This document shows positions 6,040 to 58,738 of a DNA stretch of 64,000 nucleotides, piece by piece. The stretch lies in assembly GCF_030684315.1 (NCBI RefSeq), contig NC_081367.1, forward strand, positions 5,315,956-5,379,955. Direction: 5' to 3'. Source of the stretch: Stegostoma tigrinum (lineage: Eukaryota). How positions within the stretch are numbered: position 1 is the stretch's first letter; each line of letters begins with the position of its first letter. The position numbers were made by a program, and so were the translations under genes. The notes beneath the pieces were generated by a model. That model was given only the letters and a program-made list of their open reading frames with translations, was not told where the DNA came from and did no database searches.

Positions 6040-9000
6040 TATGAACACAGGAATTAGGAGCGGAAGTAGGCCATCTGGCCCCCACAAGCCTGCTCTGCCA
6101 TTCCACAAGATCCTGGCTGATCTGTCTGCATTCTAAATTCCTTGTTCTTGTCTACCCTAGATAATCTTTAATTTCCCTGCCCAAAAAGAATCATCCAACT
6201 CTTCCTTAAAAAATATTTAATGACCAACCTCCTCCACCTTCTGAGGCAGAGAGTTCCAAAGTCACAAACCTCAGACAGATTGTTTTTCTCATCTCTACCC
6301 TTAAAGTGCAATCCTAATTTTTAAAATGTCTCCCAATTCTGGATTCATCCTCAGGAGGAAACATTCACCTTGTCAAGACCACTCAAGATGTCATAAACTT
6401 CAATCAAGACATCCGTCACTCTTCCAAACTCCAGTGGAAATAAGCCCAGCCTGAACAATTTTTCCTCATAAGTGTCTTCTCGTTCCAATTATCAATTACA
6501 CGCAACGGTCATGATGAGGTCTCACCAGTGCCCTGGACAACTGAAGCATAACCTTGCTTTAATGTTCAATTCTTAGAATGAACAGCATTCCATTAGCCTT
6601 GTTAATCATTTGCAATACCTGTTTACCAACTTTTTTGTGGTTCATGCATTAATACCTAGATCCAACCCTCTGCACATTAGCATTCCGAAGTCATTCTCCA
6701 TTGAAGTAATACTTTGCTATTTATTCTTCCTGCCAAAATGAACAATTTCATATTTCCCTACATTATATGCTGTCTCACTCAGCCTATCTTCATGTGTCTG
6801 CATCTTTCTTATCCCTTCTTCAGAACATACTTTCCAACCTATCTTAGTGTCATCTGTATATTTAGCCACCATGCTTTCGATCCCCTCTTCTAGTTCACTG
6901 GTATAAACTGTAAATAATGAGAGCCCAGCAAAGATCCCTGCAGGACCCCACCCCACTCATCATATCCTGTCAATCTGAAAAAAGGCTCATTCATGCATAT
7001 TCTGTTTTCTGTCTGTCAGCAAACCTTCTATTCATGCCGGTATGCTACCCCCTATATCTTGAACTCCTACTTCGTTCAAAAGGCTCCCCCTTCATCCACC
7101 AGCGCACATTACTCCTTCAGAGAATTTCAGTCAATTGCTCAAACATGATTTCCTTTGAACAAAACCATGCTAACTCTTCCTAGTTTTTCCCAAGTGCCTG
7201 GTCATTACCTCAAGCTAACTAGAGTACATATTGCCATTTACTGTCTCCTTTCTTTCTTAAGTAGGGGCCTTATATTTTGTGACCTTTCAGGCTGATGGAA
7301 CTTTTTTCAAAACCTAATGAATTCTGGAAAATTAACACCAACACAACAACTACTATTTTATTAGTCAAATCTGTTAAAATCCTAGGATGGAGTCCATCTG
7401 GACCCAGGGTCCACGGAAGGTGAGGTCCCCTCCTTGGAATTTTTCTTTGTAGTAGGAATGTACTTATCCTCAGTATTCTGAAATATCCTTTTAAACGTCT
7501 GCAAATGGTTTTCTACTGATCTGTCTCCAAACCCAATATTCCAGTCCACTTCAGCAAGCTCACCTTTCGTGCCTACATCATTGGCCTTATTTCAGTTTAA
7601 AACACCCACACTTCCATTTAAACTTAAAATAAAATTTAATCATAGAGGTGTATTTACTCTGAGGTTATTAATTTATCCCATCATTGTATACAATTCCAAG
7701 CACAGCCTGTCCTCTGATCAGTTACAATATGTGCTACTCCAAGAAAATACCTCAAAAACATTTATGAACTTCTCACTGTGAGACTCCTGTTGCCAGTCTG
7801 ACTTTTCCAGTTTACAGGTAGATTAAAATCACCTATGAATGTTGATATTTCTTTATCATAAGTACCCAATATTTCTTCATGTATACTCCTTCCTATGTTA
7901 TGGTTACTGTTCAGGGTAGATTTTTTCCACTCTTGACCCCTTTCCCCAGACAAGATTCTTAGAGGACTTATGGAAATCGTGTTTATCCTTGAGGGAGCGT
8001 GTAGGACTGCAAGGCATAATCCCAGAATAAGGGAGTCGCATATTTAAGACAGAGATGAGAAGGAATTTCCTCTCTCAAAGGCTAGTCAATCTGTGGAATT
8101 TCTTTACCACAAGAGGGCTGAAGAGCCTGGGCCATTAAGTATATTCAAGGCTGAGATAAACAGATTTATAATCGGTAAGGGAATTGAGGATTATAGGAAA
8201 GGCAGAAAAAGTGGAGTTGGAGATAATGAGCCATGATCACATAGAATGGCAAAGCAGATTCAATAAGCCAAATGGCCCACTTCAGCTCCAATGTCTCACA
8301 GTCTTATTATTCCTCATCTCCACCCAATCTGCTTCCACATCCTGATCTGCTGAACAAAAGTCTTTGATAAAAAGTGCTCTCCTCCACTTTTATCTCACTT
8401 CTCACTGTTCTTGAATGTCAGATCTCTCTCAGTGTTCAGGACCCAATCCTTGTCATCCTGCAGCCACTTTACACTAATGGCTATCAGATTATATTCACGC
8501 ACTACAATGTGTGATATCAATTAATTTACTTTGTTATGAATGCGAGACACATTCAGATGTTGAACATTTGGTGATTTTGTTGTCTTTGCTATATCTAGTC
8601 TCGACAGCTGGTAGAGTATTACATTTTTCTCTGGTTCCTTCCTGCCATTCTCTGACCTTCACTTTTCACATTAGTGTTTTGATCACCTTTGCTTCAACTC
8701 TATCTTTGCTTTATTATTTACTCAAGCTTGATCCCTCAGTCTTCCTTGTTTAGTTTGAAGCCTACTTACTTCCTTACTTACACAGCTGGAGAACACCAAT
8801 CCCAGCAAGGTTCATGTGTAGACTGTCCCCATTGGTGCAGATCTCACTTTCCGTAGAGCTGTGTCAGTGCCCCACAATCCAGAATTCATTCTGCCTGTAC
8901 AAGTCTCTAATTTTATTCATTCTCTGGCAATTTACATGTGGCTCAAGTGAAAGTCCAGAAATTACTACTTTTGAAGTTCTGCTTTTTTTTAAGTTAGTAC

Positions 9001-9620
9001 CTAATTTCTCATGTTCCTTCAGCAGAACTTGTTTCCTGTTTCCACTAATGCCATTGGTATCAACATGAGCCGCAATTGCTGACTCCTCCCTTTTCAACTG
9101 TAAGTTCTTCTCCAGCCTAGAGGAGATATCCTGCACCCCGGCACCAGGCAGACCAGCCTGCCATCTGAACTTGAAATTTTTGCTGCAGAAAACAGTGTCA
9201 ATCCACCCCGCTGTACTCTCTCCTTGGTCCCGTTCCCTCTCATGAATGACTTCTTGTGCAATGGTGCCACGGTCAGTTAGCGCACCCACCCTGCAGTCCT
9301 CACTCTCAACCTAACAAGCTGAAAAGAAACACCAAAGCCGTTGGACAATTCCTGTGCTCCTCCCATCTGGGTCCTCTTACCAGGTTCTCTCACATTGACA
9401 CTTTCCTGTCCTTAACCACTGAACAAACCAGAAGGCATATCCATAGTTGTGTGAGTGCCACCTGGAATAAAGCATCCATGTAACTTTCCCCCTCTCTGGT
9501 CTGCCACAGTACATGCAGCTTGGCCTGTAAGTCATTAGCTCTGAAGCTACGGCAGCCACAAGCACTTACTTCAGATATGTTTGCCCTCGATCATACCAGA
9601 AGCTCCCACATTCTGCAACT
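6040..9620 (-). mobile_element. Old degenerate CR1 LINE including ORF1 (SGNH/esterase-like) and ORF2 remnants, interrupted by a + strand CR1 3' fragment at ~7955-8305
   Basis: ORF 8864-9289 (LPGAGVQDIS...HVDTNGI...KSRTSKVVISGL) resembles CR1 ORF1 esterase; 7762-7953 contains IGDFNLP (APE); 6717-6956 contains KYTDDTK (RT). Confidence 0.75.
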
Positions 9621-10002
9621 GTAGCACTTTATCTGCCATGCCACTTCTAATGTACAATAGTTAGTTAACTGTTAATTAATTTATAATTAATACAGCCTTC
9701 CATCTCCCAATATGTTTTAGTGCTGCCAGCAAATTTTACAACCCTTAAAACCAGATGATCCTTTAATGCTGATAGAGTCCACAGTTTTAATAAAACCAGG
9801 TGCTATATCAGCTCCTCCACTGCACAAAATCAGAAATCAAATGCTGGAGGCTTGAAAAAAAATAGAATAGAAGAGAAAAAAGCACCTCCTTCCCATCCTT
9901 CAGCAAACTCCCAGTCAGCACACTTTATTTCTGCCAGACAACCTTATTTAAAGCACCTCTTTTCCAATTTGCCACTTTGAACCAAATTCCCAGATATAAT
10001 CA

Positions 10003-10219
10003 AAGATAACAAAGTGTGGGGCTGGATGAACACAGCAGACCAAGCAGCATCTTGGGAGCACAAAAGCTGATGTTTCGGGCCTAGACCCTTCATCAGAGAG
10101 TCTAGGTCCAAAACGTCAGCATTTGTGCTCCTAAGATGCTGCTTGGCCTGTTGTGTTCATCCAGCCTCACATTTTGTTATCTTGGATTCTCCAGCATCTG
10201 CAGTTCCCATTATCTCAGA
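10003..10219. mobile_element. Miniature fold-back PLE insertion (two inverted 3' ends) with 15-bp TSD
   Basis: Arms ~10003-10098 and ~10100-10219 are inverted. Flanks TCCCAGATATAATCA (9988-10002) and TCCCAGATATTATCA (10220-10234). Confidence 0.85.
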
Positions 10220-10524
10220 TCCCAGATATTATCACTTGTCTGAAGTCTCCCTCACATTGACCATGAGCTTTAAAATTCTTTTTCTTACGCCAAGCTGTGA
10301 TAAGTCACTCTCTAGCTTAACTTCCGGCTACAGTAAATCAACATCTATCTGCCATAGGATTTCAGGTGATTGATAGATAACTGCCACAATGAGGAAGCTC
10401 CCTGCATGACTCAGTCACACCGACTTTGCCCTTACTGACTGCCAGACAAGTTTCAGATTAATGTTGCCAGATGGCATACCCCACATGGCAGCACAAAATC
10501 ATAAACAATCCTCTGTACTGCAGC

Positions 10525-10725
10525 TGAGATAGCGAGATGTAGAGCTGGATGAACACAGCAGGCCAAGCAGCATCAGAGGAGCAGGAAAGCTAACGTTTCA
10601 GGTCTGGACCTTTCTTCAGAAACGTCAGCCTTCCTGCTCCGCTGATGCTGCTTGTCCTGCTGTGTTCATCCAGCTCTACACCTTGTTGTATCAGATTCTC
10701 CAGCATCTGCAGTTCCTACTATCTC
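10525..10725. mobile_element. Miniature fold-back PLE insertion with ~9-bp TSD
   Basis: Inverted arms join at ~10619. Flanks TACTGCAGC (10516-10524) and TATTGCAGC (10726-10734). Confidence 0.8.
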
Positions 10726-11092
10726 TATTGCAGCATTGTGTTTGCTTTCTTGATTGGTGCATTGTAACGATGAAATGAAGCTTTAAGCTACAACTGATTT
10801 GTTGGCGTCCTCTGTAACTCAGACGACATCATCAGGTTTGAATCTGCAAATTCCAAGCCTTGCCACAGTTTAGTGAAAAACGTGCATTGACTTTCTGATT
10901 TTAGATTATTTCGAATCTCCTTTCCATCTCTGTCCATAACTTGTTCTGAACATTTCCATCACATGCTCTTCTCTTCCCTTTCCTGTCAACCTGATTCTGA
11001 CTATTCAACTCTCCTGACTCCATTGCCATCATCAAGAATCCTGATTCCTTTCTGTCCCTGATTCTCCTGTGCTCCTGTGATAGTAAACTTAC

Positions 11093-11315
11093 CCAAGTGA
11101 AGAAGTGCGGCTGAAACCTCAGTAAGTTTGCTCGCTGGACTAGAAACTGCAGGCTCTGGTTTACTCCAGACGATACCAGCTCTGATCAGGCGGGAATGGA
11201 TGTAATCTCGGCACAGCGCTTTCGCTTGAGAAATGAGCTCTTTCTCAGGGGGAAAGCGGTCAAAAACATCCATCACTTCAGCAGCAAAGACGGAGGAACG
11301 TCGAAGCATCTCCAT
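11093..11315 (-). CDS. BOK: BCL2-family apoptosis regulator BOK, first coding exon (74 codons + 1 nt)
   Basis: Translates MEMLRRSSVFAAEVMDVFDRFPPEKELISQAKALCRDYIHSRLIRAGIVWSKPEP...LTEVSAALLHL(G), recognisably the BOK N-terminus up to BH3. Acceptor ttttctgcag directly precedes the ATG; donor GTAAGT at 11092-11087, phase 1. Confidence 0.95.
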
Positions 11316-11584
11316 CTGCAGAAAAGCAACATTGCGATTAGATAATACCTGAGCTACACTAGACAATGTCACCACGAAGGTCTACAGAGTGGCGACAGAA
11401 AAGGGTGCATAACATACAGGGTAAGAGTTAGGTGTTTAGTGCATGTGAGACATTCTGATAAGCAACAGTGTGTCAAACTAAAATTTGGTTGAATTAAACT
11501 TAAAAACTTTAAAACTGCAAGTTACTCAGTTTTGAGCACAAACTGCCCATCAGCGCTGGTTAACTGTCAATCAGCTGGAAGTGT

Positions 11585-12355
11585 CACACAGCCATACAGC
11601 ACAGAAACAGACCCTTTGAAAATAATCCCAAACTAAACTAGACCTGCCTGCCTGGGCTTTGCCCATACCCTCCAAACATTTCTTATTTATGTACTTCACT
11701 AAATGTCTTTTAAATATTGCAACTGTACATGCATCCACCACGTCCTCTGCAAGTTAATTCCATACATGAACCACTTTCTGTGTAAAAAAGTTGCCCCTCA
11801 TATATTTTTTAAATGTTTCTCCTCTCACCTTATAAATATACCCCCAGTCTTGAAATTCCCACCCTAGGGAAAAGACACCTGCCGTTCCCCTTACCTATGC
11901 CCCACATGATTTTCAAAAGTCACCCATCGACCTCCTACGTTCCAGTGAAAAAAGTCGCAGCCTATTCAGCCTCTCTTTATAACTCAAACCCTCCATTCCC
12001 AGCAACATCCTGGTAAATGTTTTCTGAACCCTCTCCAGCTTAATAATATCTTTCCTATAACAGGGTGACCAGAACTGGACACATTACTCCAGAAGAGACC
12101 TCACCAACATCCTGTACAGCCTCAACATGATGTCCCACCTGCTACACTCACCATGTCTGAGCAATAAAGGCAGGCTACTAATTGCCTTCTTAACCACCCT
12201 GCCTACATATGATGCTAAGCTCAAAAAATTCTGTCCCCAAACCCCTAGGTGTCTGTTTTACAACACTATCCAAAGCCCTATATTTAATTATGTAAGTCCT
12301 GCCCTCGTTTGTTTAACAAAAATGCAACACCTCACATTTATCCAAATTAAACTCA
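11585..12355 (-). mobile_element. CR1-type LINE 3' fragment
   Basis: Similar to the other CR1 3' ends in the window; the reverse strand encodes the VQFWSP motif. Confidence 0.75.
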
Positions 12356-15129
12356 TTGGAATTTAGAAGATCAAAAGGAAATCTTAATATAATAGACAAG
12401 ATTCTCAAGGACTAGATATGTGGATACTATAGGTCATCATTTTTCCTTGTAGACTAGAAATAGGCGACACTGTTTAGCAGATCAGGAGGAATATTTTGAG
12501 AGGCGTTTGTGCGTGGAATTGTCTTCATGTTACTAGCCAGCTTTCTCAATGTTGTCTGTATCTTTTACCTCTTTAGTCACTCCTAGTGGTTTTTAACCTC
12601 TATTCAGACTTTTGACCTACTACTTGTCTCTGCAGATTTGCACAGTATGTCTTTCTTCTTGTTGCTTGCCGCTTCAACGCACCACTGTGTTCCCCGGCCA
12701 ACATCTTTGTCTCGGGCTTGTTGTTGTGATTGCCGGAATAGTTGCTAATAGGTGAACAGAAGCCTGAGTCACCAGTTGTGAATTGGGTGCGGTTCAAAAA
12801 TGGATAGAAACAAACAGTACGGGCTGATGGATAGAACAGAGCACATAGTTTGAGAATTCTGTGCAGGTGAGGTGCTGCTTTTTGTCTCCATTTCTTGTCA
12901 AGGTTTATACTGCAGGCAAATATTTAATTTAGTAACTTAGATTAGTTAAAATAATTAGTTAAAAGACAAAAATGTATAAATTGATTAAAAACGCAGATTA
13001 TTCAATAAACAAAATAAGGTCATTGATACAGCAGGGACCTCTGGTATAGTGGCAGTGTCCCTATCTCTGAGCAAAGTGGCCTGGGTTTAAGTCCCACCTG
13101 CATGAGAGATGTCAGGCCATGATGCTCTTGAACAGGTTGATTCAAAAACATTTTGGACTACCTTAGCCTGGCTGACAAATTAGCAGAAGCTGGAGGCCAC
13201 GGTCTTAGCTCATCTAGGCTGCTGGCCAGAACTGCTCTGAGTCCTATCCTACAGGTGCCAAGTGCTGGTCATTAACCAGCTGGTGGCCTCCATGATGTGG
13301 TAGTGCTGGTCCCTTTGACCCCTCCCTCTAGCCCTGTTACAAAAATCTGGTGGGTGTTGCTTCACCTCTTCGGGTACAAGAGATGTATTGGGTCACAGGA
13401 CATGGTGAAAGTCTCCCCCTTGAAGAGGGTGTTCAGTTGGTTTCTCCCCACACCCATATGTGGCAACTTTCCACCTTCAGACCCTGCAGCGATACCTTTC
13501 CGTCAAGCCATCACCTGGAAAGTGCTCTCAGGCAACATATTCCTTCTGTTGCATGCACAATCTCAGTGACAACATGTAGCTCCTGTTCATGCACAGTGAG
13601 GGTCTTTATGAGAACCTGATCAACATGTGGAATACGGTTAATTTACACCCAGCTCTTGCTGCTGTCAGGAGTAGCGGTTATCGCCAGAGAGCCACTGATC
13701 AGGAATCTACACTTCTTTTATCACAGGCTCGAGTGCCTGGAGGAGGGAGAGCCTTGTTTGGGGGGGTGAACAGAGTTGGGAACATGCTGGGTGGCAGGGG
13801 CCTGGGCTAGATGTTCCTTCAGGAATTGGCAAGCAGGATGGCAGTGGACGCCCAGCTTGTGGCCAATGCTGTCCATCGACTGAAAAGGCTGTGCTCAGAT
13901 CTGGTGCTGTGCAAGGGTTGAAGGACACTCTAGCGAGCAGTGTGACCCCATCTGTGTGTACCTCTGCTCAGAATTCTGCAACATCTCCAGGTTCCAGAAG
14001 GTCTCTCAGGAGCCCACACTCCACAAACTGAACCACCTGGTGCAGAGTCCCTGTGTCCTTCCATCTGGTGCAGAGAAGTACCACTACATTAAAAGATCTA
14101 AAGGACAGGGGCAGCTAATACATAGCAACGCCACCAGCTGCAAGTTCCCTCCATGCCGCTCTGACTTGGAAATGTATCGTTGTTCCTTCAGTGTCACTGG
14201 GTCAGAATCGTGAACCACCCTTCCTTATAGCATTGTAGGTATTCCTACACTACACAGACTGCAGCGGCTCAGGAAGGCCTTTGAAAGCAATTGGAGATGG
14301 GAAGTAAACACTGTAGTGAATGTCATATCCTGTAGAACAATGTTTTAAACATCCTTTCCCTGATACATGCACACATGGAGTTCTGATAGCACCCTTGCAA
14401 ATCTCCTTCACACTCTCTCCCATTTTGGAATACAACCAGAATTACATACAGTGCTGCTGAATGTGGGCAAACCAAGGTTTGATCCAGATTTCATGTCAGC
14501 TCCCTACTTTTCAATTCTATCCCTCTGGAAATAATGCCAAGTGCTTGTTTATTTCTTTTATGGCATTGCTAACCTATGGCATGACTTCTGACTATTGGTA
14601 CATTAAGATTCTTGAGATTCTTTAGTTCCTCAAATTGCACCTTACAAGTGACCCTTTGTGACCTCTTTTTCCTACAGGTACTACCTGACGTTTACTTGTG
14701 ATGAGCTTCATTTGCTACTTTTCTTTTCCAAATTTGAGTTCAAACTCCAAGGCAATACAAGCACTATCCTTGTCAGGTCTCCTGTGGAGCAGATCTAGTC
14801 ACCAAAACAAAGCTGGCAATACCAAGGACAATGAAGATACTAGTGATCATCAGAAGACAGACTCAAAAATAGAAACTAGAGGAGTACGCCATTGAGGCTT
14901 TTGAGCCTGTTCTACCATTTAATATGATCTTGGGCTAATCATCCAATTCAGTACCCTGTTCCTGCTTGCTCCCCACACCCTTTGACCCCTTCAGCCCTCA
15001 GAATTACATCTAACCCTTTCTTGAAAACATTCAAAGTTTTGGCCCCCCCACCATTTGTAGAATGTGGTAAATCCAGGTCATTTATATGAAAGTACAAGGT
15101 AAGGGCTGTGGAATGCAATTTTCAAAGAA

Positions 15130-15490
15130 AGAACTCACACTGGTATAGCACATATCACTTCCTGATGTCTCAAACTACTTGACAACAATTCAAGCATCTG
15201 CCACAAGTAGTAACAGTATTTTATTTTGTGATAACACGGCGTGAAGCTGGATGAACACAGCAGGCCAAGCAGCATCAGAGGAGCAGGAAAGTTTGACGTT
15301 TCGGGTCGGGACCTATTTTGTGATTGTTTATTGAGGGACAAATATTGGCCGAGACACACAGAAGGAAACCCATTCCTCTTCAAAGGGAGGGATGATAACA
15401 AGATCCAGGTTTAAAGTTCTATTCTGAGCTCTGGCCAGTGAAGTAATAAGTGAACATCTCTGGCCCGAATGCTACCACGTAGCCATGGCT
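15130..15490 (-). mobile_element. Old DeuSINE-like SINE, interrupted by an ~80-bp PLE 3' fragment (15233-15313)
   Basis: Similar to 47100-47520 in reverse. The PLE insert is flanked by the direct repeat TATTTTGTGAT (15222-15232 / 15314-15324). Confidence 0.55.
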
Positions 15491-17989: not shown

Positions 17990-18441
17990 ATACACTTAAT
18001 GGTAGGGTCCTGGGAAATGTTGCTGAACAAAAAGACCATGGGGTGCAGGTCAACACTTCATTGAAGGTGAAGTCACAGCTAGGCTGGGGAGCAAAGAAGG
18101 TGTTTGTATGCTTGCCTTTATTGGTTAATGCATTTGAGTATTGAAGTTGGAAGGTCATGTTGTAGCTGCACAAGACACTGGTTAGGACTCTGGGAATAAT
18201 GTATTCAATTCTGGTCTCCCTGCTATATGAAAGATGTTGTGAAACTTGAAAGGGCTCAGAAAAGATTATAAGGATGTTGCCAGGTTTGGAGAGTTTGAGC
18301 TATAGGGAGACGCTGAATACACTGGGGTTATTTTAGGTGCACGTATGGAGTAGGCTGCCAGAGAAAGTGGTGGAGGTGGGTACAATTACAACATTTAGAA
18401 GGCATCTGGATGGGTACATAAATAGGAAAGGTTTAGAGAGA
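17990..18441 (+). mobile_element. CR1 LINE 3' fragment, host of the PLE insertion; resumes at 21140-21265
   Basis: CR1 ORF2 C-terminal remnants. AAGGTTTAGAGAGA is duplicated on both sides of the PLE and the CR1 tail continues after it. Confidence 0.8.
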
Positions 18442-18536
18442 GATAATGGGAACTGCAGATGCTGGAGATTCCAAGATAATAAAATGTGAGGCTGGATGAA
18501 CACAGCAGGCCAAGCAGCATCTCAGGAGCACAAAAA

Positions 18537-18568
18537 CTGACGTTTCGGGCCTAGACCCTTCATCAGAG
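18537..18568 (-). ncRNA. Minimal hammerhead ribozyme motif (left arm)
   Basis: Reverse complement reads CT-CTGATGA-AGGGTCTAGGCCC-GAAA-CGTC-AG. Confidence 0.8.
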
Positions 18569-18790
18569 AGGGGGATGGGGGGAGGGAACTGGAATAAATA
18601 GGGAGAGAGGGGGAGGCGGACCGAAGATGGAGAGTAAAGAAGATAGGTGGAGAGAGTGTAGGTGGGGAGGTAGGGAGGGGATAGGTCAGTCCAGGAGAGA
18701 CGGACAGGTCAAGGAGGTGGGATGAGGTTAGTAGGTAGCTGGGGGTGCGGCTTGGGGTGGGAGGAAGGGATGGGTGAGAGGAAGAACCGG

Positions 18791-20482
18791 TTAGGGAGGC
18801 AGAGACAGGTTGGACTGGTTTTGGGATGCAGTGGGTGGGGGGGAAGAGCTGGGCTGGTTGTGTGGTGCAGTGGGGGGAGGGGATGAACTGGGCTGGTTTA
18901 GGGATGCAGTAGGGGAAGGGGAGATTTTGAAACTGGTGAAGTCCACATTGATACCATATGGCTGCAGGGTTCCCAGGCGGAATATGAGTTGCTGTTCCTG
19001 CAACCTTCGGGTGGCATCATTGTGGCACTGCAGGAGGCCCATGATGGACATGTCATCAAGAGAATGGGAGGGGGAGTGGAAATGGTTTGCGACTGGGAGG
19101 TGCAGTTGTTTGTTGCGAACTGAGCGGAGGTGTTCTGCAAAGCAGTCCCCAAGCCTCCGCTTGGTTTCCCCAATGTAGAGGAAGCCGCACCGGGTACAGT
19201 GGATGCAGTATACCACATTGGCAGATGTGCAGGTGAACCTCTGCTTGATGTAGAATGTCATCTTGGGGCCTGGGATGGGGGTGAGGGAGGAGGTGTGGGG
19301 ACAAGTGTAGCATTTCCTGCGGTTGCAGGGGAAGGTGCCGGGTGTGGTGGGGTTGGAGGGCAGTGTGGAGCGAACAAGGGAGTCACGGAGAGAGTGGTCT
19401 CTCCGGAAAGCAGACAGGGGAGGGGATGGAAAAATGTCTTGGGTGGTGGGGTTGGATTGTAAATGGCGGAAGTGTCGGAGGATAATGCGTTGTATCCGGA
19501 GGTTGGTAGGGTGGTGTGTGAGAACGAGGGGGATCCTCTTGGGGCGGTTGTGGCGGGGGCGGGGTGTGAGGGATGTGTCGCGGGAAATGCGGGAGACGCA
19601 GTCAAGGGCGTTCTCGATCACCGTGGGGGGAAAGTTGCGGTCCTTAAAGAACTTGGACATCTGGGATGTGCGGGAGTGGAATGTCTTATCGTGGGAGCAG
19701 ATGCGGCGGAGGCGGAGGAATTGGGAATAGGGGATGGAATTTTTGCAGGAGGGTGGGTGGGAGGAGGTGTATTCTAGGTAGCTGTGGGAGTCGGTGGGCT
19801 TGAAATGGACATCAGTTACAAGCTGGTTGCCTGAGATGGAGACTGAGAGGTCCAGGAAGGTGAGGGATGTGCTGGAGATGGCCCAGGTGAACTGAAGGTT
19901 GGGGTGGAAGGTGTTGGTGAAGTGGATGAACTGTTCGAGCTCCTCTGGGGAGCAAGAGGCGGCGCCGATACAGTCATCAATGTACCGGAGGAAGAGGTGG
20001 GGTTTGGGGCCTGTGTAGGTGCGGAAGAGGGACAGTTCCACGTAACCTACAAAGAGGCAGGCATAGCTGGGGCCCATGCGGGTGCCCATGGCCACCCCCT
20101 TAGTCTGTAGGAAGTGGGAGGAGTCAAAAGAGAAGTTGTTGAGTGTGAGGACGAGTTCAGCTAGGCGGTTGAGAGTGTTGGTGGAGGGGGCCTGGTCGGG
20201 CCTGCGGGACAGGAAGAAGCGGAGGGCCTTGAGGCCATCTCCATGCGGAATGCAGGTGTACAGGGACTGGACGTCCATGGTGAATATGAGGTGTTGGGGG
20301 CCAGGGAATTGGAAGTCCTGGAGGAGGTGGAGGGCGTGGGTGGTGTCACGGACATAGGTGGGGAGTTCCTGGACCAAAGGGGAGAAAATGGAGTCCAGGT
20401 AGGTGGAGATGAGTTCGGTGGGGCAGGAGCAGGCTGAGACGATGGGTCGACCAGGGCAGGCAGGTTTGTGGATTTTGGGCAG
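18791..20482 (-). CDS. PLE reverse transcriptase + GIY-YIG endonuclease ORF (5'-truncated, no internal stops)
   Basis: Motifs LPKIHK, TMDVQSLYT, QTKGVAMGTRMGPSYA, FLRYIDD, Cys-rich linker CNRRKCYTC, and VVYCIHCTRCGFLYIGET. The ORF-track residues upstream of LPKIHK come from the inverted arm. Confidence 0.92.
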   Translation of the reverse strand: MPKIHKPACPGRPIVSACSCPTELISTYLDSIFSPLVQELPTYVRDTTHALHLLQDFQFPGPQHLIFTMDVQSLYTCIPHGDGLKALRFFLSRRPDQAPSTNTLNRLAELVLTLNNFSFDSSHFLQTKGVAMGTRMGPSYACLFVGYVELSLFRTYTGPKPHLFLRYIDDCIGAASCSPEELEQFIHFTNTFHPNLQFTWAISSTSLTFLDLSVSISGNQLVTDVHFKPTDSHSYLEYTSSHPPSCKNSIPYSQFLRLRRICSHDKTFHSRTSQMSKFFKDRNFPPTVIENALDCVSRISRDTSLTPRPRHNRPKRIPLVLTHHPTNLRIQRIILRHFRHLQSNPTTQDIFPSPPLSAFRRDHSLRDSLVRSTLPSNPTTPGTFPCNRRKCYTCPHTSSLTPIPGPKMTFYIKQRFTCTSANVVYCIHCTRCGFLYIGETKRRLGDCFAEHLRSVRNKQLHLPVANHFHSPSHSLDDMSIMGLLQCHNDATRRLQEQQLIFRLGTLQPYGINVDFTSFKISPSPTASLNQPSSSPPPTAPHNQPSSSPPPTASQNQSNLSLPP

Positions 20483-21048
20483 AACACCTCCGCTCAGTTC
20501 GCAACAAACAACTGCACCTCCCAGTCGCAAACCATTTCCACTCCCCCTCCCATTCTCTTGATGACATGTCCATCATGGGCCTCCTGCACTGCCACAATGA
20601 TGCCACCCGAAGGTTGCAGGAACAGCAACTCATATTCCGCCTGGGAACCCTGCAGCCATTTGGTATCAATGTGGACTTCACCAGTTTCAAAATCTCCCCT
20701 TCCCCTACTGCATCCCTAAACCAGCCCAGTTCGTCCCCTCCCCCCACTGCACCACACAACCAGCCCAGCTCTTCCCCTCCACCCACTGCATCCCAAAACC
20801 AGTCCAACCTGTCTCTGCCTCCCTAACCTGTTCTTCCTCTCACCCATCCCTTCCTCCCACCCCAAGCCGCACCCCCAGCTACCTACTAACCTCATCCCAC
20901 CTCCTTGACCTGTCCGTCTTCCCTGGACTGACCTATCCCCTCCCTACCTCCCCACCTACACTCTCTCCACCTATCTTCTTTACTCTCCATCTTCAGTCCG
21001 CCTCCCCCTCTCTCCCTATTTATTCCAGTTCCCTCCCCCCATCCCCCT

Positions 21049-21080
21049 CTCTGATGAAGGGTCTAGGCCCGAAACGTCAG
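21049..21080 (+). ncRNA. Minimal hammerhead ribozyme motif (right arm)
   Basis: CTGATGA 21051-57; stem II GGGT/GCCC with CTAG loop; GAAA 21071-74; palindromic ACGT; predicted cleavage after GTC at 21078. Confidence 0.8.
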
Positions 21081-21389
21081 CTTTTGTGCTCCTGAGATGC
21101 TGCTTGGCCTGCTGTGTTCATCCAGCCTCACATTTTATTAAGGTTTAGAGAGATATGGGCTGAATGGCAAATGGCACCAGATTTATTTAGAATATCTAGT
21201 CAACATGGACAAGTTGGACCAAAGGGTCTGTTTTTGTGCTGTACAACTCTATGACAATGACTCTATTAAATAACAGCACAAACAGAGATCAATGAGCATG
21301 ATCTTACAGCCATTACAGAGACATGGTTACTAGGAGATCAAAGCTAGGAATAGAGTCATAATGGTGAGAATGACACAAAGAAATTATAT

Positions 21390-22830: not shown

Positions 22831-22937
22831 ACTCCTGTTCTGTCAATAGCATATCTTTTTTCGCTGTTTAGCATGCATGGAGTCCTGTTTTGCTGCATGT
22901 ACAGATTCATTAGTTTGGCATCTCATTTTTCAACATT

Positions 22938-23364
22938 GCAGTAGGGGGAGGGGAGGTTTTGAAGCTTGTGAAATCCTTCAAAATCCCCCTATTGCATCCC
23001 AAAACCAGCCCAGCTCATCCCCGCCTCCTTAACCCGTTCTTCCTCTCACCTATCCCCTCCTCCCATCTCAAACCGTACCCCTATCTCCTACCTACTAACC
23101 TCATCCTGCCCCCTTGACCTGTCCATCCTACCTACACTCACCTTTACTGGCTCCATCCCTGCATCTTTTACTTGTCTGTCCCCACTCCACCTATCTTCTC
23201 CTCTACCCATCTTCAATCCGCCTCCCCCTCTCTCCCCATTTATTTCAGAACCCTCTTCCCCTCCCCCATTTCTGATGAAGGGTCTCAGCCCGAAACGTCA
23301 GCTTTCCTGCTCCTGAGATGCTGCTTGGTCTGCTGTGTTCATCCAGCTCCACACCTTGTTATCA
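22938..23364 (+). mobile_element. PLE 3' fragment with short inverted stub and hammerhead motif at 23270-23301
   Basis: Matches the PLE 3' UTR; contains CTGATGA-AGGGTCTCAGCCC-GAAA-CGTC-AG. Confidence 0.85.
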
Positions 23365-23958
23365 TAGATTTTTTTGTCACCAGCGCAGAGATGATAGTAC
23401 TTTATATTTCCTACATTCCTGTAATTGTCTTCCCAAAAGGGAGGAATGTGGAAGTTGGGGTTGTCACTATATATTTTTAAGGCTCAGTTAATAAGATACT
23501 TGATTGACAAGACTGTGAAAAGATACAGAGGTAGGCAGCAAGTTAGAGTTGTAGCCACAGTAAAGTCAGCATGACAGGCCTGAATCAGATTAGTTATGAT
23601 TTGATCAAAAGATGCTAGAGGCTCAAGAAGCCTATTCCAGTTCCTAATAGGTGATGTTCATATATGTGTATGTGTTACAATGGCAGGCATGATGCTAAGT
23701 ATTTAATTGGCTGTAAAGCACTTGGGAATATTCTATGATTTTGAAAAATACTATATAAATGCAAGCTCTTCTTTTCAAGCTTTTCTATTTCATGTCTTTC
23801 CTATGGCAGCAAAAATAATGCACATTTTTCTATTCGGTTAGGTTGAATGTGCTATTCTTTAACTTGTCTGTCTCAGTCTTTCTTTTTGTTTGTCAAACCT
23901 ACTTTTTAGTATCTTCAACAAACATTCACATTGTCCTGCAAACGCAAATATATTATAA

Positions 23959-34364: not shown

Positions 34365-35661
34365 GATAAGATAACAAAGTGTGAAGCTGGGTGAGCACAG
34401 CAGGCCAAGCAGCATCTCAGGAGCACAAAAGCTAACGTTTTAGGCCTAGACCCTTCATCAGAGAGGGTTCTGAAATAATTAGGGAGAGAGGGGGAGGTGG
34501 ACCAAAGATGGATAGAGGAGAAGATAGGTGGAGAGGAGAGTATAGGTGGGGAGGTAGGGAGGGGATAGGTCAGTCTGGGGAGGACGGGCTGGTCAAGGAG
34601 GCAGGATGAGGTTTGTAGGTGGGAAATGGAGGTGCGGCTTGAGGTGGGAGGAGGGGATAGGTGAGAGGAAAAACAGGTTAGGGAGGCGGGGACGAGCTGG
34701 GCTGGTTTTGGGATGCAGTGGGGGAAGGGGAGATTTTGAAGCTTGCGAAGCGGTCCCCAAGACTCTGCTTGGTTTCCGGAATGTAGCGGAAGCCACACCG
34801 GGTACAGTGGATACAGTATACCACGTTGACAGATGTGCAGGTGAACATCTGATTAATGTGGAAAGTTGTCTTGGCGCCTGGGATGGGGGTGAGACAGGAG
34901 GTGTGTGGGCAAGTGTAGCACTTCCTGCGGTTGCAGGGGAAGGTGCCGGGTGTGGTGGGGTTGGAGGGGAGTGTGGAGTGGACAAGGGAGTCATGGAGAG
35001 CTGGAGCTCACCCATCATCTGCCCAGGGTAGTGGGCACCCATGTTGGTGCTGTTGAATATACATTTACTGCATCCACTATTGTAAAGACGACCACTCCTG
35101 CAATGTGTACTTGGTGTGGGATGCTTCTCATTGCAGCTCAGTTTGGTCCTGTGCCAGTCCAAGTGAGCTCTTGTGTCCTGCGTCCAGCAGGATGAGGATT
35201 TGTCACTGACTGTGTGGCTCATGGTTCCGGTCCACAGCACAATGGTTCACAAGCTCCAAAATCTCCCCTTCCCCCACTGCATCCCAAAACCAGCCCAGCC
35301 CATCCCCACCTTCCTAACCTGTTCTTCCTCTCACCTATCCCCTCATCCCACCTCAAGCCGCACCTCCATTTCCCACCTACTAACCTCACCTCGCCTCCTT
35401 GACCTGTCTGTCCTCCCCGGACTGACCTATCCCCACCCAACCTCCCCACCTATCTTCTCCTCTATCCATCTTCGGTCCACCTGCCCCTCTCTCCCTATTC
35501 ATTTCAGAACCCTCTCCCCTTCCCCCTTTTCTGATGAAGGGTCTAGGCCCAAAACATCAGCTTTTGTGCTCCTGAGATGCTGCTTGGCCTGCTGTGTTCA
35601 TCCAGCTCCACACTTTGTTATCTTGGATTCTCCAGCATCTGCAGTACCCATTATCACTGAT
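34365..35661. mobile_element. Fold-back PLE insertion in the last PIGX intron, with an unrelated ~250-bp filler between the arms and a 10-bp TSD
   Basis: - arm ~34365-34999, + arm ~35247-35661. TSD ACCAATTTGG at 34355-34364 and 35662-35671. Confidence 0.85.
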
Positions 35662-58504: not shown

Positions 58505-58738
58505 TTGGCTCCAAATCTACCATCCTCTGAGAAAAAGAACAGGAAACGACATCACCAACCCAAGGAAACCTAAACAGATAAATAGAAAGCGGGACATAAC
58601 ACCAGCACTTCATTGGGGGCTCACTGATGATGTTACCTAGAATGGTGACGAAACGTCTGAAAACTAACCTTCCAGCTCAGCGAGCAAACTCACATCCAGA
58701 AACTCAGCCTGAGCTACAAATCTTCTCAAAACTCGCTG
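58505..58738 (+). mobile_element. 3' end of a second PLE family (Poseidon-like)
   Basis: Unrelated in sequence to the main PLE 3' UTR but carries its own hammerhead motif. Confidence 0.65.
58621..58660 (+). ncRNA. Minimal type I hammerhead ribozyme motif
   Basis: Stem I TCA/TGA; CTGATGA 58624-30; stem II GTTACC/GGTGAC; GAAA 58650-53; CGTC with predicted cleavage after 58657. Confidence 0.85.

Follow-up and report, generated by a model that had tools for sequence, protein, structure and literature searches.

The short fold-backs E1 (10003-10219, 217 bp) and E2 (10525-10725, 201 bp) are shortened, ordinary landing products of a Penelope-like element (PLE). They form the short end of the length series found in the window, the whole 64-kb stretch of DNA that was analysed. 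The best explanation as a whole, with a probability of roughly 0.6, is that both are likely dead-on-arrival insertions of an endonuclease-bearing (EN+) PLE whose cDNAs were joined by complementarity, and that the ribozyme of the family separately is likely to cut some templates.

Positions within the family are given on a scale, d, counted from the tip of the tail in the long PLE copy at 18439-20478 (d = position - 18438), with the minus strand as the sense strand. On this scale, C3 of the hammerhead core lies at d128, stem II at d120-109, the GAAA box at d108-105 and the GUC triplet at d103-101.

Structure of the Two Fold-Backs

The arms of E1 (92 nt) and of E2 (76 nt) are each 88% complementary, and the folds stand out from those of shuffled sequences with z = -20 and z = -14, respectively. 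The left arm of E1 (10003-10100, minus strand) is a tail-less PLE 3′ end that spans d35-132 and is 91% identical to the long copy 18439-20478. The right arm (10100-10219, plus strand; 92.5% identity to the long copy) runs from d118 to the tail tip, with the tail placed by alignment at approximately 10184-10219. E2 has the same arrangement when aligned to the long copy. Its tail-less left arm (10525-10622, minus strand), from a second subfamily, runs from d35 to d128-131, and its tailed right arm (10619-10725, plus strand) starts at GAAA (d105-108) and carries a tail at approximately 10693-10725. The arms of the two elements have 82-93% identity to the long copy. E1 and E2 are only 79-83% identical to each other and are therefore assigned to different PLE subfamilies.

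Each fold-back is flanked by its own TSD. That of E1 measures 15 bp (9988-10002 and 10220-10234, plus strand) with 14/15 positions identical, and that of E2 measures 9 bp (10516-10524 and 10726-10734, plus strand) with 8/9 identical, a match equalled within ±3 nt by 133 of 20,000 random pairs. The arms, the junctions and the separate TSDs confirm the initial annotation, which had described two independent fold-backs, each made of two inverted PLE 3′ ends with TSDs of 15 bp and ~9 bp. It had missed that the 3′ end of the right arm only, in both elements, extends by a further 33-36 nt in the alignment, which is the known PLE tail.

The two junctions lie within the hammerhead, where they had been placed before: the left arms reach past the CUGANGA core and the right arms begin in stem II or at GAAA. 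More exactly, the left arm of E1 ends 3-4 nt 5′ of CUGAUGA and its right arm begins at d118, within the 5′ strand of stem II. The arms of E1 share a 1-nt overlap, which sits where d128-132 and d118-123 pair imperfectly over 5-6 bp, and those of E2 overlap by 4 nt at 10619-10622.

The Parent PLE Family

Nine insertions of the family are present within the window. The reference copy is the longest of them, the insertion at 18439-21140, which shares the layout of E1 and E2 in that a tailed arm (2040 nt, minus strand) and an inverted tail-less arm (662 nt, plus strand) lie between TSDs identical at 14/14 positions. The inverted arms have 98.6% identity over 662 nt and are separated by a 1340-nt spacer. 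An open frame of 561 aa contains YIDD, a CX4CxxC linker at residue 384 and a GIY-YIG-type end in which a pair of cysteines lies between GIY and YIG. Its Pfam matches to RVT_1 (E 2.4e-5) and GIY-YIG (E 0.041) both fall below the curated cut-offs, and no Pfam match was obtained when the frame was searched as a whole protein. Among 22 longer homologues of the frame, PF00078 was found in 16 and PF01541 in 5. The likeness of the arms to this RT/GIY-YIG copy supports the PLE origin that had been proposed for E1 and E2, and the motif parse supports the minimal hammerhead. The long insertion looks young, given the identity of its arms; it resides inside another repeat and has a 39-bp unit repeated three times at the end of the ORF.

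Inverted units of the same layout occur at 1-1635 and 34365-35661, and a solo tail-less copy (15227-15316, minus strand; TSD 11/11) has its 5′ end at d~120 in stem II. Besides E1 and E2, with 15 and 9 bp, three further copies have TSDs, of 10, 11 and 14 bp; another three have none that is convincing. In the unit at 34365-35661 (TSD 10/10), approximately 245 nt between the arms (35001-35245) are unmatched by the reference and are possibly captured sequence. A tail-less copy at 22937-23365 has a short local fold-back (~40 nt) at its 5′ end, comparable to the 5′ palindromes of rotifer pLTRs. Arms at 22937-22975, ~34750 and ~35246 end or skip within ~5 nt of one another at d~502-505, near the end of the ORF and with no hammerhead there, which may mark a second hot spot or the boundary of a master copy.

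The Hammerhead Motif

Motif parsing places a minimal hammerhead on the minus strand at 10069-10096 in E1 and at 10592-10619 in E2. The E1 motif has an intact core, a helix II of 4-5 bp, a helix I of 2 bp and the triplet AUC in place of GUC. That of E2 has a CUGAAGA core, an A-U pair closing helix II, a helix I of 2 bp and the triplet GUU. The CUGANGA, GAAA and NUH boxes and the extra base after position 9 are all present in both left arms. The long copy holds both the G10.1-C11.1 pair and the palindromic 15.2-16.2; the left arm of E1 has G-C but ACAU and that of E2 has ACGU but A-U, a pattern that fits decay. Among the ten window copies parsed, helix I is 2 bp in nine and 0 bp in one copy with a deletion. 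Stem II, of 4-5 bp, is predicted to be paired at 0.9-1.0, and the RNA is predicted to be unpaired from d127 upward. In both fold-backs, the fold prediction buries the hammerhead in a long hairpin, which for E1 is that of the minus strand.

A search of Rfam returned no hammerhead match and only six sub-threshold matches, mostly of miRNA models on hairpins. Scanning two metagenome collections, one viral and one prokaryote collection for sequence patterns gave 0 loci. A further CUGAUGA...GAAACGUC motif is located at 58624-58660; it has a different helix II, is unmatched by the family reference and probably belongs to another PLE family.

Junction Positions Along the 3′ End

Contigs of four sequencing runs were aligned to d1-402 at 80% likeness. 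Runs X11 and X12 are of the same species and from one study, and contain >90% of the words of 8000-14500; X5 and X1 represent a related organism. For X11, 157,908 records were aligned, with some joints left uncounted by the tool. The bisulfite raw-read runs X15-X17 were left out, as base conversion would bias the alignment.

Of the 14 arms in the window, 5 have their end at d100-135 (P 0.002-0.005). With the ascertained E1 and E2 removed, this becomes 1 of 10 arms against 0.5-0.8 expected (P 0.4-0.6). A first set of contig joints numbers 136, of which 15 are listed. Five of these link the tail tip to the tail-less end and three are skips. Another three are same-strand returns to the tip from d123, d128 and d131, found in 16, 14 and 9 contigs of X11 and in 17, 12 and 9 contigs of X12. 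In the four listed head-to-head joints, the long arm ends at d121-132 in every case and overlap letters are absent in three. Detectability along the reference varies at most about twofold, and smooth models place 4-6% of ends at d121-132. If the listed rows are the top ones, the probability that all three same-strand joints fall at d98-132 by chance is 0.001-0.011 under four detectability-corrected smooth models.

Judged from the listed rows, an excess of junctions at the ribozyme is likely but modest. The excess of breakpoints that the initial annotation proposed to look for stands in part: the contig joints at d121-132 make some excess probable, and the window apart from E1 and E2 does not add to it. 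Among the six leading loose ends of each run (24 listed of 1704), none at d98-135 resembles flanking sequence, and in X11 any such end stays under 163, as compared to 921 at the tail-less 3′ end (921 and 935 listed). The junctions of E1 (132/118) and E2 (128-131/105-108) do not appear among the 27 of 495 joint rows that are listed, and a self-propagating mini-family is therefore not indicated.

Several apparent signals were set aside. The loose ends at 18491, 18530, 18574, 18631, 18652-18654 and 18738 continue as family sequence and were treated as alignment stops. The fall in summed X11 depth from d85-126 to d127-252 (14.9M to 6.3M) was rejected as evidence because contig depth is not copy number and, in the related species, varies 30-fold from bin to bin. 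Head-to-head offsets of 32-49 nt resemble the tail length but were not used, since the 31-letter assembly word favours such offsets.

In the best-supported joints, at 18439-18476 of the reference, the tail tip (d1-4) meets an opposite-strand tail-less end (d33-38). They occur in 198 contigs of X11 and 215 of X12, with none from X1 or X5. Such fold-backs are tail-to-tail, with a loop made of the tail, and are thereby opposite in layout to the usual head-to-head form.

Joints at the Predicted Cut Site

The hammerhead is predicted to cut after GUC, between d101 and d100 (18538-18539 of the reference, minus strand), and contig joints that can be read as same-strand end there. Joints with letters between their sides number 359, of which 12 are listed. 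In seven of these the start is 18535 and the letters are GC, GCT or GCTTC. At 18536 (d98) the reference carries a private base, where other copies have G; the letters are therefore a continuation of the arm. When the seven rows are taken as same-strand joints, every one ends at d100, the first base after the predicted cut, four of them outright (GCT) and three via a shared T. None continues further and none shows only G. The partner positions are d1 (the tail tip), d31, d32 and d34 (the inner start) and d63, and are thus for the most part 3′ start sites of the element. Summed depths in X11 are 900, 298, 252 and 148, each above most or all of those of the d123-131 joints (161, 131 and 94). Median depth is ~10 for the longest pieces listed, with the caveat that depth is not copy number. 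A head-to-head joint, 18535/18570, starts at the same key, with 7 and 8 contigs. The remaining five of the 12 rows lie at d81 (twice), d130, d216 and d346. Owing to the private base, this listing collects ends at d98-100, and ends at d101 or beyond would appear elsewhere; it gives no kind of joint. Among the rows listed, those of the d100 type come from X11 and X12 only, with none for X5 or X1.

The simplest reading of these joints is that RT runs off on self-cleaved RNA and then jumps to a 3′ start, and it would amount to in-vivo evidence of cleavage. It is somewhat more probable than even odds that the minimal PLE hammerhead, with its 2-bp helix I, cleaves in vivo in this way during retrotransposition, the 3′ product being reverse-transcribed and RT running off and restarting at the tail tip or the inner start to leave base-exact genomic scars. 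With so short a helix I, cleavage would depend on a dimer or on help from a protein. The competing account, possible but doubtful, is that the joints are nested insertions at a DNA nick at d100|101, or a few old events that were multiplied, exposed by the private base at d98. PLEs are reported to insert into or beside their own copies (PMC6765202), the site is 3 nt from an A-run, the private base gathers ends at d98-100 in one table, and X11 and X12 come from one study of unrecorded kind. Against such insertions, all seven rows fit d100 with none showing only G, five different partner positions are involved, smooth models place only 1-3% of expected ends at d98-100, and the site matches the ribozyme cut to the base. 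A reading of the d100 joints as splice acceptors was discarded, for the boundary would then be d98 and every partner would have to end in AG.

The four arms of E1 and E2 all pass the GUC site, and the claim that their templates were uncleaved RNA holds for them. It does not extend to the family, in which the deepest listed same-strand joints end at the cut site.

Two joints have summed depths far above those of single pieces in both runs. These are 18535 to 18501 (d100 to d63, a 38-nt return; 900/1924) and 18519 to 18445 (d81 to d7; 430/917), and they are possible amplified subfamilies.

Formation of the Fold-Backs

In the proposed sequence of events, the PLE enzyme would nick both target strands. 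From one nick, cDNA synthesis would be primed at the tail tip; from the second, at the inner start ~35 nt upstream. Both cDNAs would stop after 95-120 nt on uncleaved RNA. Repair would then join the two cDNAs through short complementarity. The join would be likely to fall in the hammerhead owing to base composition, and a fold that stalls RT would be unneeded. Separately, the ribozyme of the family would likely cut some templates, on which RT may run off and restart at a 3′ start site.

The purine fraction of the cDNA is 0.37-0.41 at d101-127 as compared to 0.66-0.85 elsewhere. In each of the four copies tested, an end at d101-135 has more 4-nt pairing partners (1.0-2.7) than one at d136-400 (0.25-0.63), a difference of about 2-10-fold that base composition alone produces. 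Of the stretches tested in the last 400 nt, the hammerhead has the weakest purine skew, and two cDNA ends therefore pair there more easily. Composition accounts for E1 and E2 without any role for the fold, and both junctions use local complementarity. The same-strand joints at d123, d128 and d131 need no inverted pairing, and composition therefore leaves part of the d121-132 cluster unexplained; nor does it account for the three of four listed head-to-head contig joints that lack overlap. A further point against joining by pairing is where the short arm of E2 starts: a stop imposed by the fold would act at this very place, the 3′ foot of stem II.

Three other explanations bear on the same junctions. 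Arms may end at d121-132 because the template RNAs start there, at a transcript start or at the edge of a protein-protected fragment, so that RT runs off, followed by a jump or by joining. This rival is a live one, at a rather low probability. The listed joints do cluster at d121-132 in both the same-strand and the inverted classes, and the RNA is predicted to be unpaired from d127 upward. A TCT-like initiator motif at d132 is only one of five matches in 402 nt, and the absence of flank-like loose ends at d98-135 among the top six per run also weighs against RNA starts. The pLTR is described as holding PLE promoters (PMC2377424), and the R2 RT as jumping from RNA 5′ ends (PMC3414825), both of which suit an RNA start at this position. 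The model of the initial annotation, that the hammerhead fold stalls RT or prompts template switching, has become improbable. As it would predict, stem II or its foot is where three 5′ ends fall, those of the short arm of E1 (d118), the short arm of E2 (d105-108) and the solo copy (d~120). However, this stem has only 4-5 bp, both long arms pass it to end in sequence predicted to be unpaired, and a stronger predicted stem at d77-85 has no cluster among the listed rows, save one joint at d81 and one at d85.

It is highly improbable that the short fold-backs are the remnants of a later central deletion in longer, unstable palindromes. Long, near-perfect inverted arms exist in the family (98.6% over 662 nt), the overlap at the junctions also fits deletion repair, and the arm ends are near symmetric, with offsets of 14 and ~23 nt. 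Yet the long units are intact and have kept wide spacers (1340 nt), and the zone is shared by the ends of solo copies and of same-strand joints, which have no palindrome that could be deleted. The joining of two short cDNAs by complementarity is retained as the preferred explanation of E1 and E2.

Comparison with Known Systems

The insertion pattern of E1 and E2 is already published, and the elements themselves are ordinary. PLE insertions are described as an inverted, 5′-truncated copy with a one-sided tail of 30-40 bp (PMC8557442, PMC3846280). In vitro, both target strands are reported to be cut and extended, and two internal RT starts to bound the PLE tail (PMC11167929). [quoted passage not shown] They differ only in size, their arms being cut back to ~100-120 nt, and therefore no coding sequence is left. 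The Neptune and Nematis clades are defined by a CX2-5CxxC linker between RT and EN according to PMC8557442. The long copy, a candidate for these clades, shares with them a CX4CxxC linker before the endonuclease and two cysteines between GIY and YIG.

The motif of the window copies has the same core boxes as the metazoan PLE type I hammerheads described in PMC4209133, with an extra base between positions 9 and 10.1 and a palindromic ACGU, which in the left arm of E1 reads ACAU, replacing helix III. The same source gives a helix I of 4-5 bp in S. mansoni families and of 2 bp in D. virilis; the 2-bp helix I of nine of the ten window copies is like the latter. It also notes opposite-strand hammerhead pairs 100-700 bp apart, and states that evidence for in-vivo cleavage by PLE minimal hammerheads is lacking. 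PMC11167929 reports hammerhead cleavage in vitro that is assisted by protein and dispensable for insertion, reports that RNA-seq reads with an end at the cut site were not found, and names unprocessed RNA as the main substrate. The last two points agree with E1 and E2 and disagree with the d100 joints.

The d100 joints bear on an open question, that of in-vivo cutting by the minimal hammerheads of PLEs. DNA joints that match the cut site to the base in a high-copy family would make this question testable from assemblies alone. If the reading is true, genomic junction maps would be a fossil assay of ribozyme activity, and in-vivo cleavage would help to explain the tandem and inverted structure of PLEs. 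Among the titles and abstract starts surveyed, no genomic PLE junctions are reported at the hammerhead cut site; Fig. S2 of PMC11167929, on genomic ends and reads at that site, bears on this novelty. A comparable role is described for R2, in which a ribozyme cut sets the RNA 5′ end for the RT jump and the junctions are base-exact (PMC3414825, PMC3774820). The R2 ribozyme is HDV-like and lies at the element's 5′ end, whereas the cut in this PLE would lie 100 nt from the RT start. Cleavage would therefore yield short pieces.

MITEs have inverted repeats that extend to both termini, a fixed TSD length and a DNA-transposase partner. E1 and E2 are not MITEs, as they have a tail on one side only, TSDs of 9-15 bp and a parent that encodes RT. 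With the non-LTR retrozymes (bioRxiv 10.64898/2026.07.22.740005) they have in common that they are short, non-coding, PLE-derived and hammerhead-bearing. Retrozymes are described there as head-to-tail arrays with a whole ribozyme per unit, whereas each of E1 and E2 is an inverted pair whose single whole motif is trapped in a long hairpin. Their inverted arrangement, with right arms that have no CUGANGA, rules out this class.

Genomic Context

A coding exon of BOK is located at 11093-11312 on the minus strand (phmmer match to PDB 5wdd_A, E 3.5e-20), with its donor site read from the sequence, and E1 and E2 sit behind this donor. A motif scan of the 64-kb window found no later BOK exon, and the placement of the elements in a BOK intron is for this reason inferred. 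Of the intronic insertion claimed at first, the match of the exon to BOK holds, and the intron position is at this level of inference. On the BOK sense strand (minus), E1 and E2 form long hairpins of -142 and -139 kcal/mol that bury whole hammerhead motifs, and these predicted hairpins may be substrates for RNA editing.
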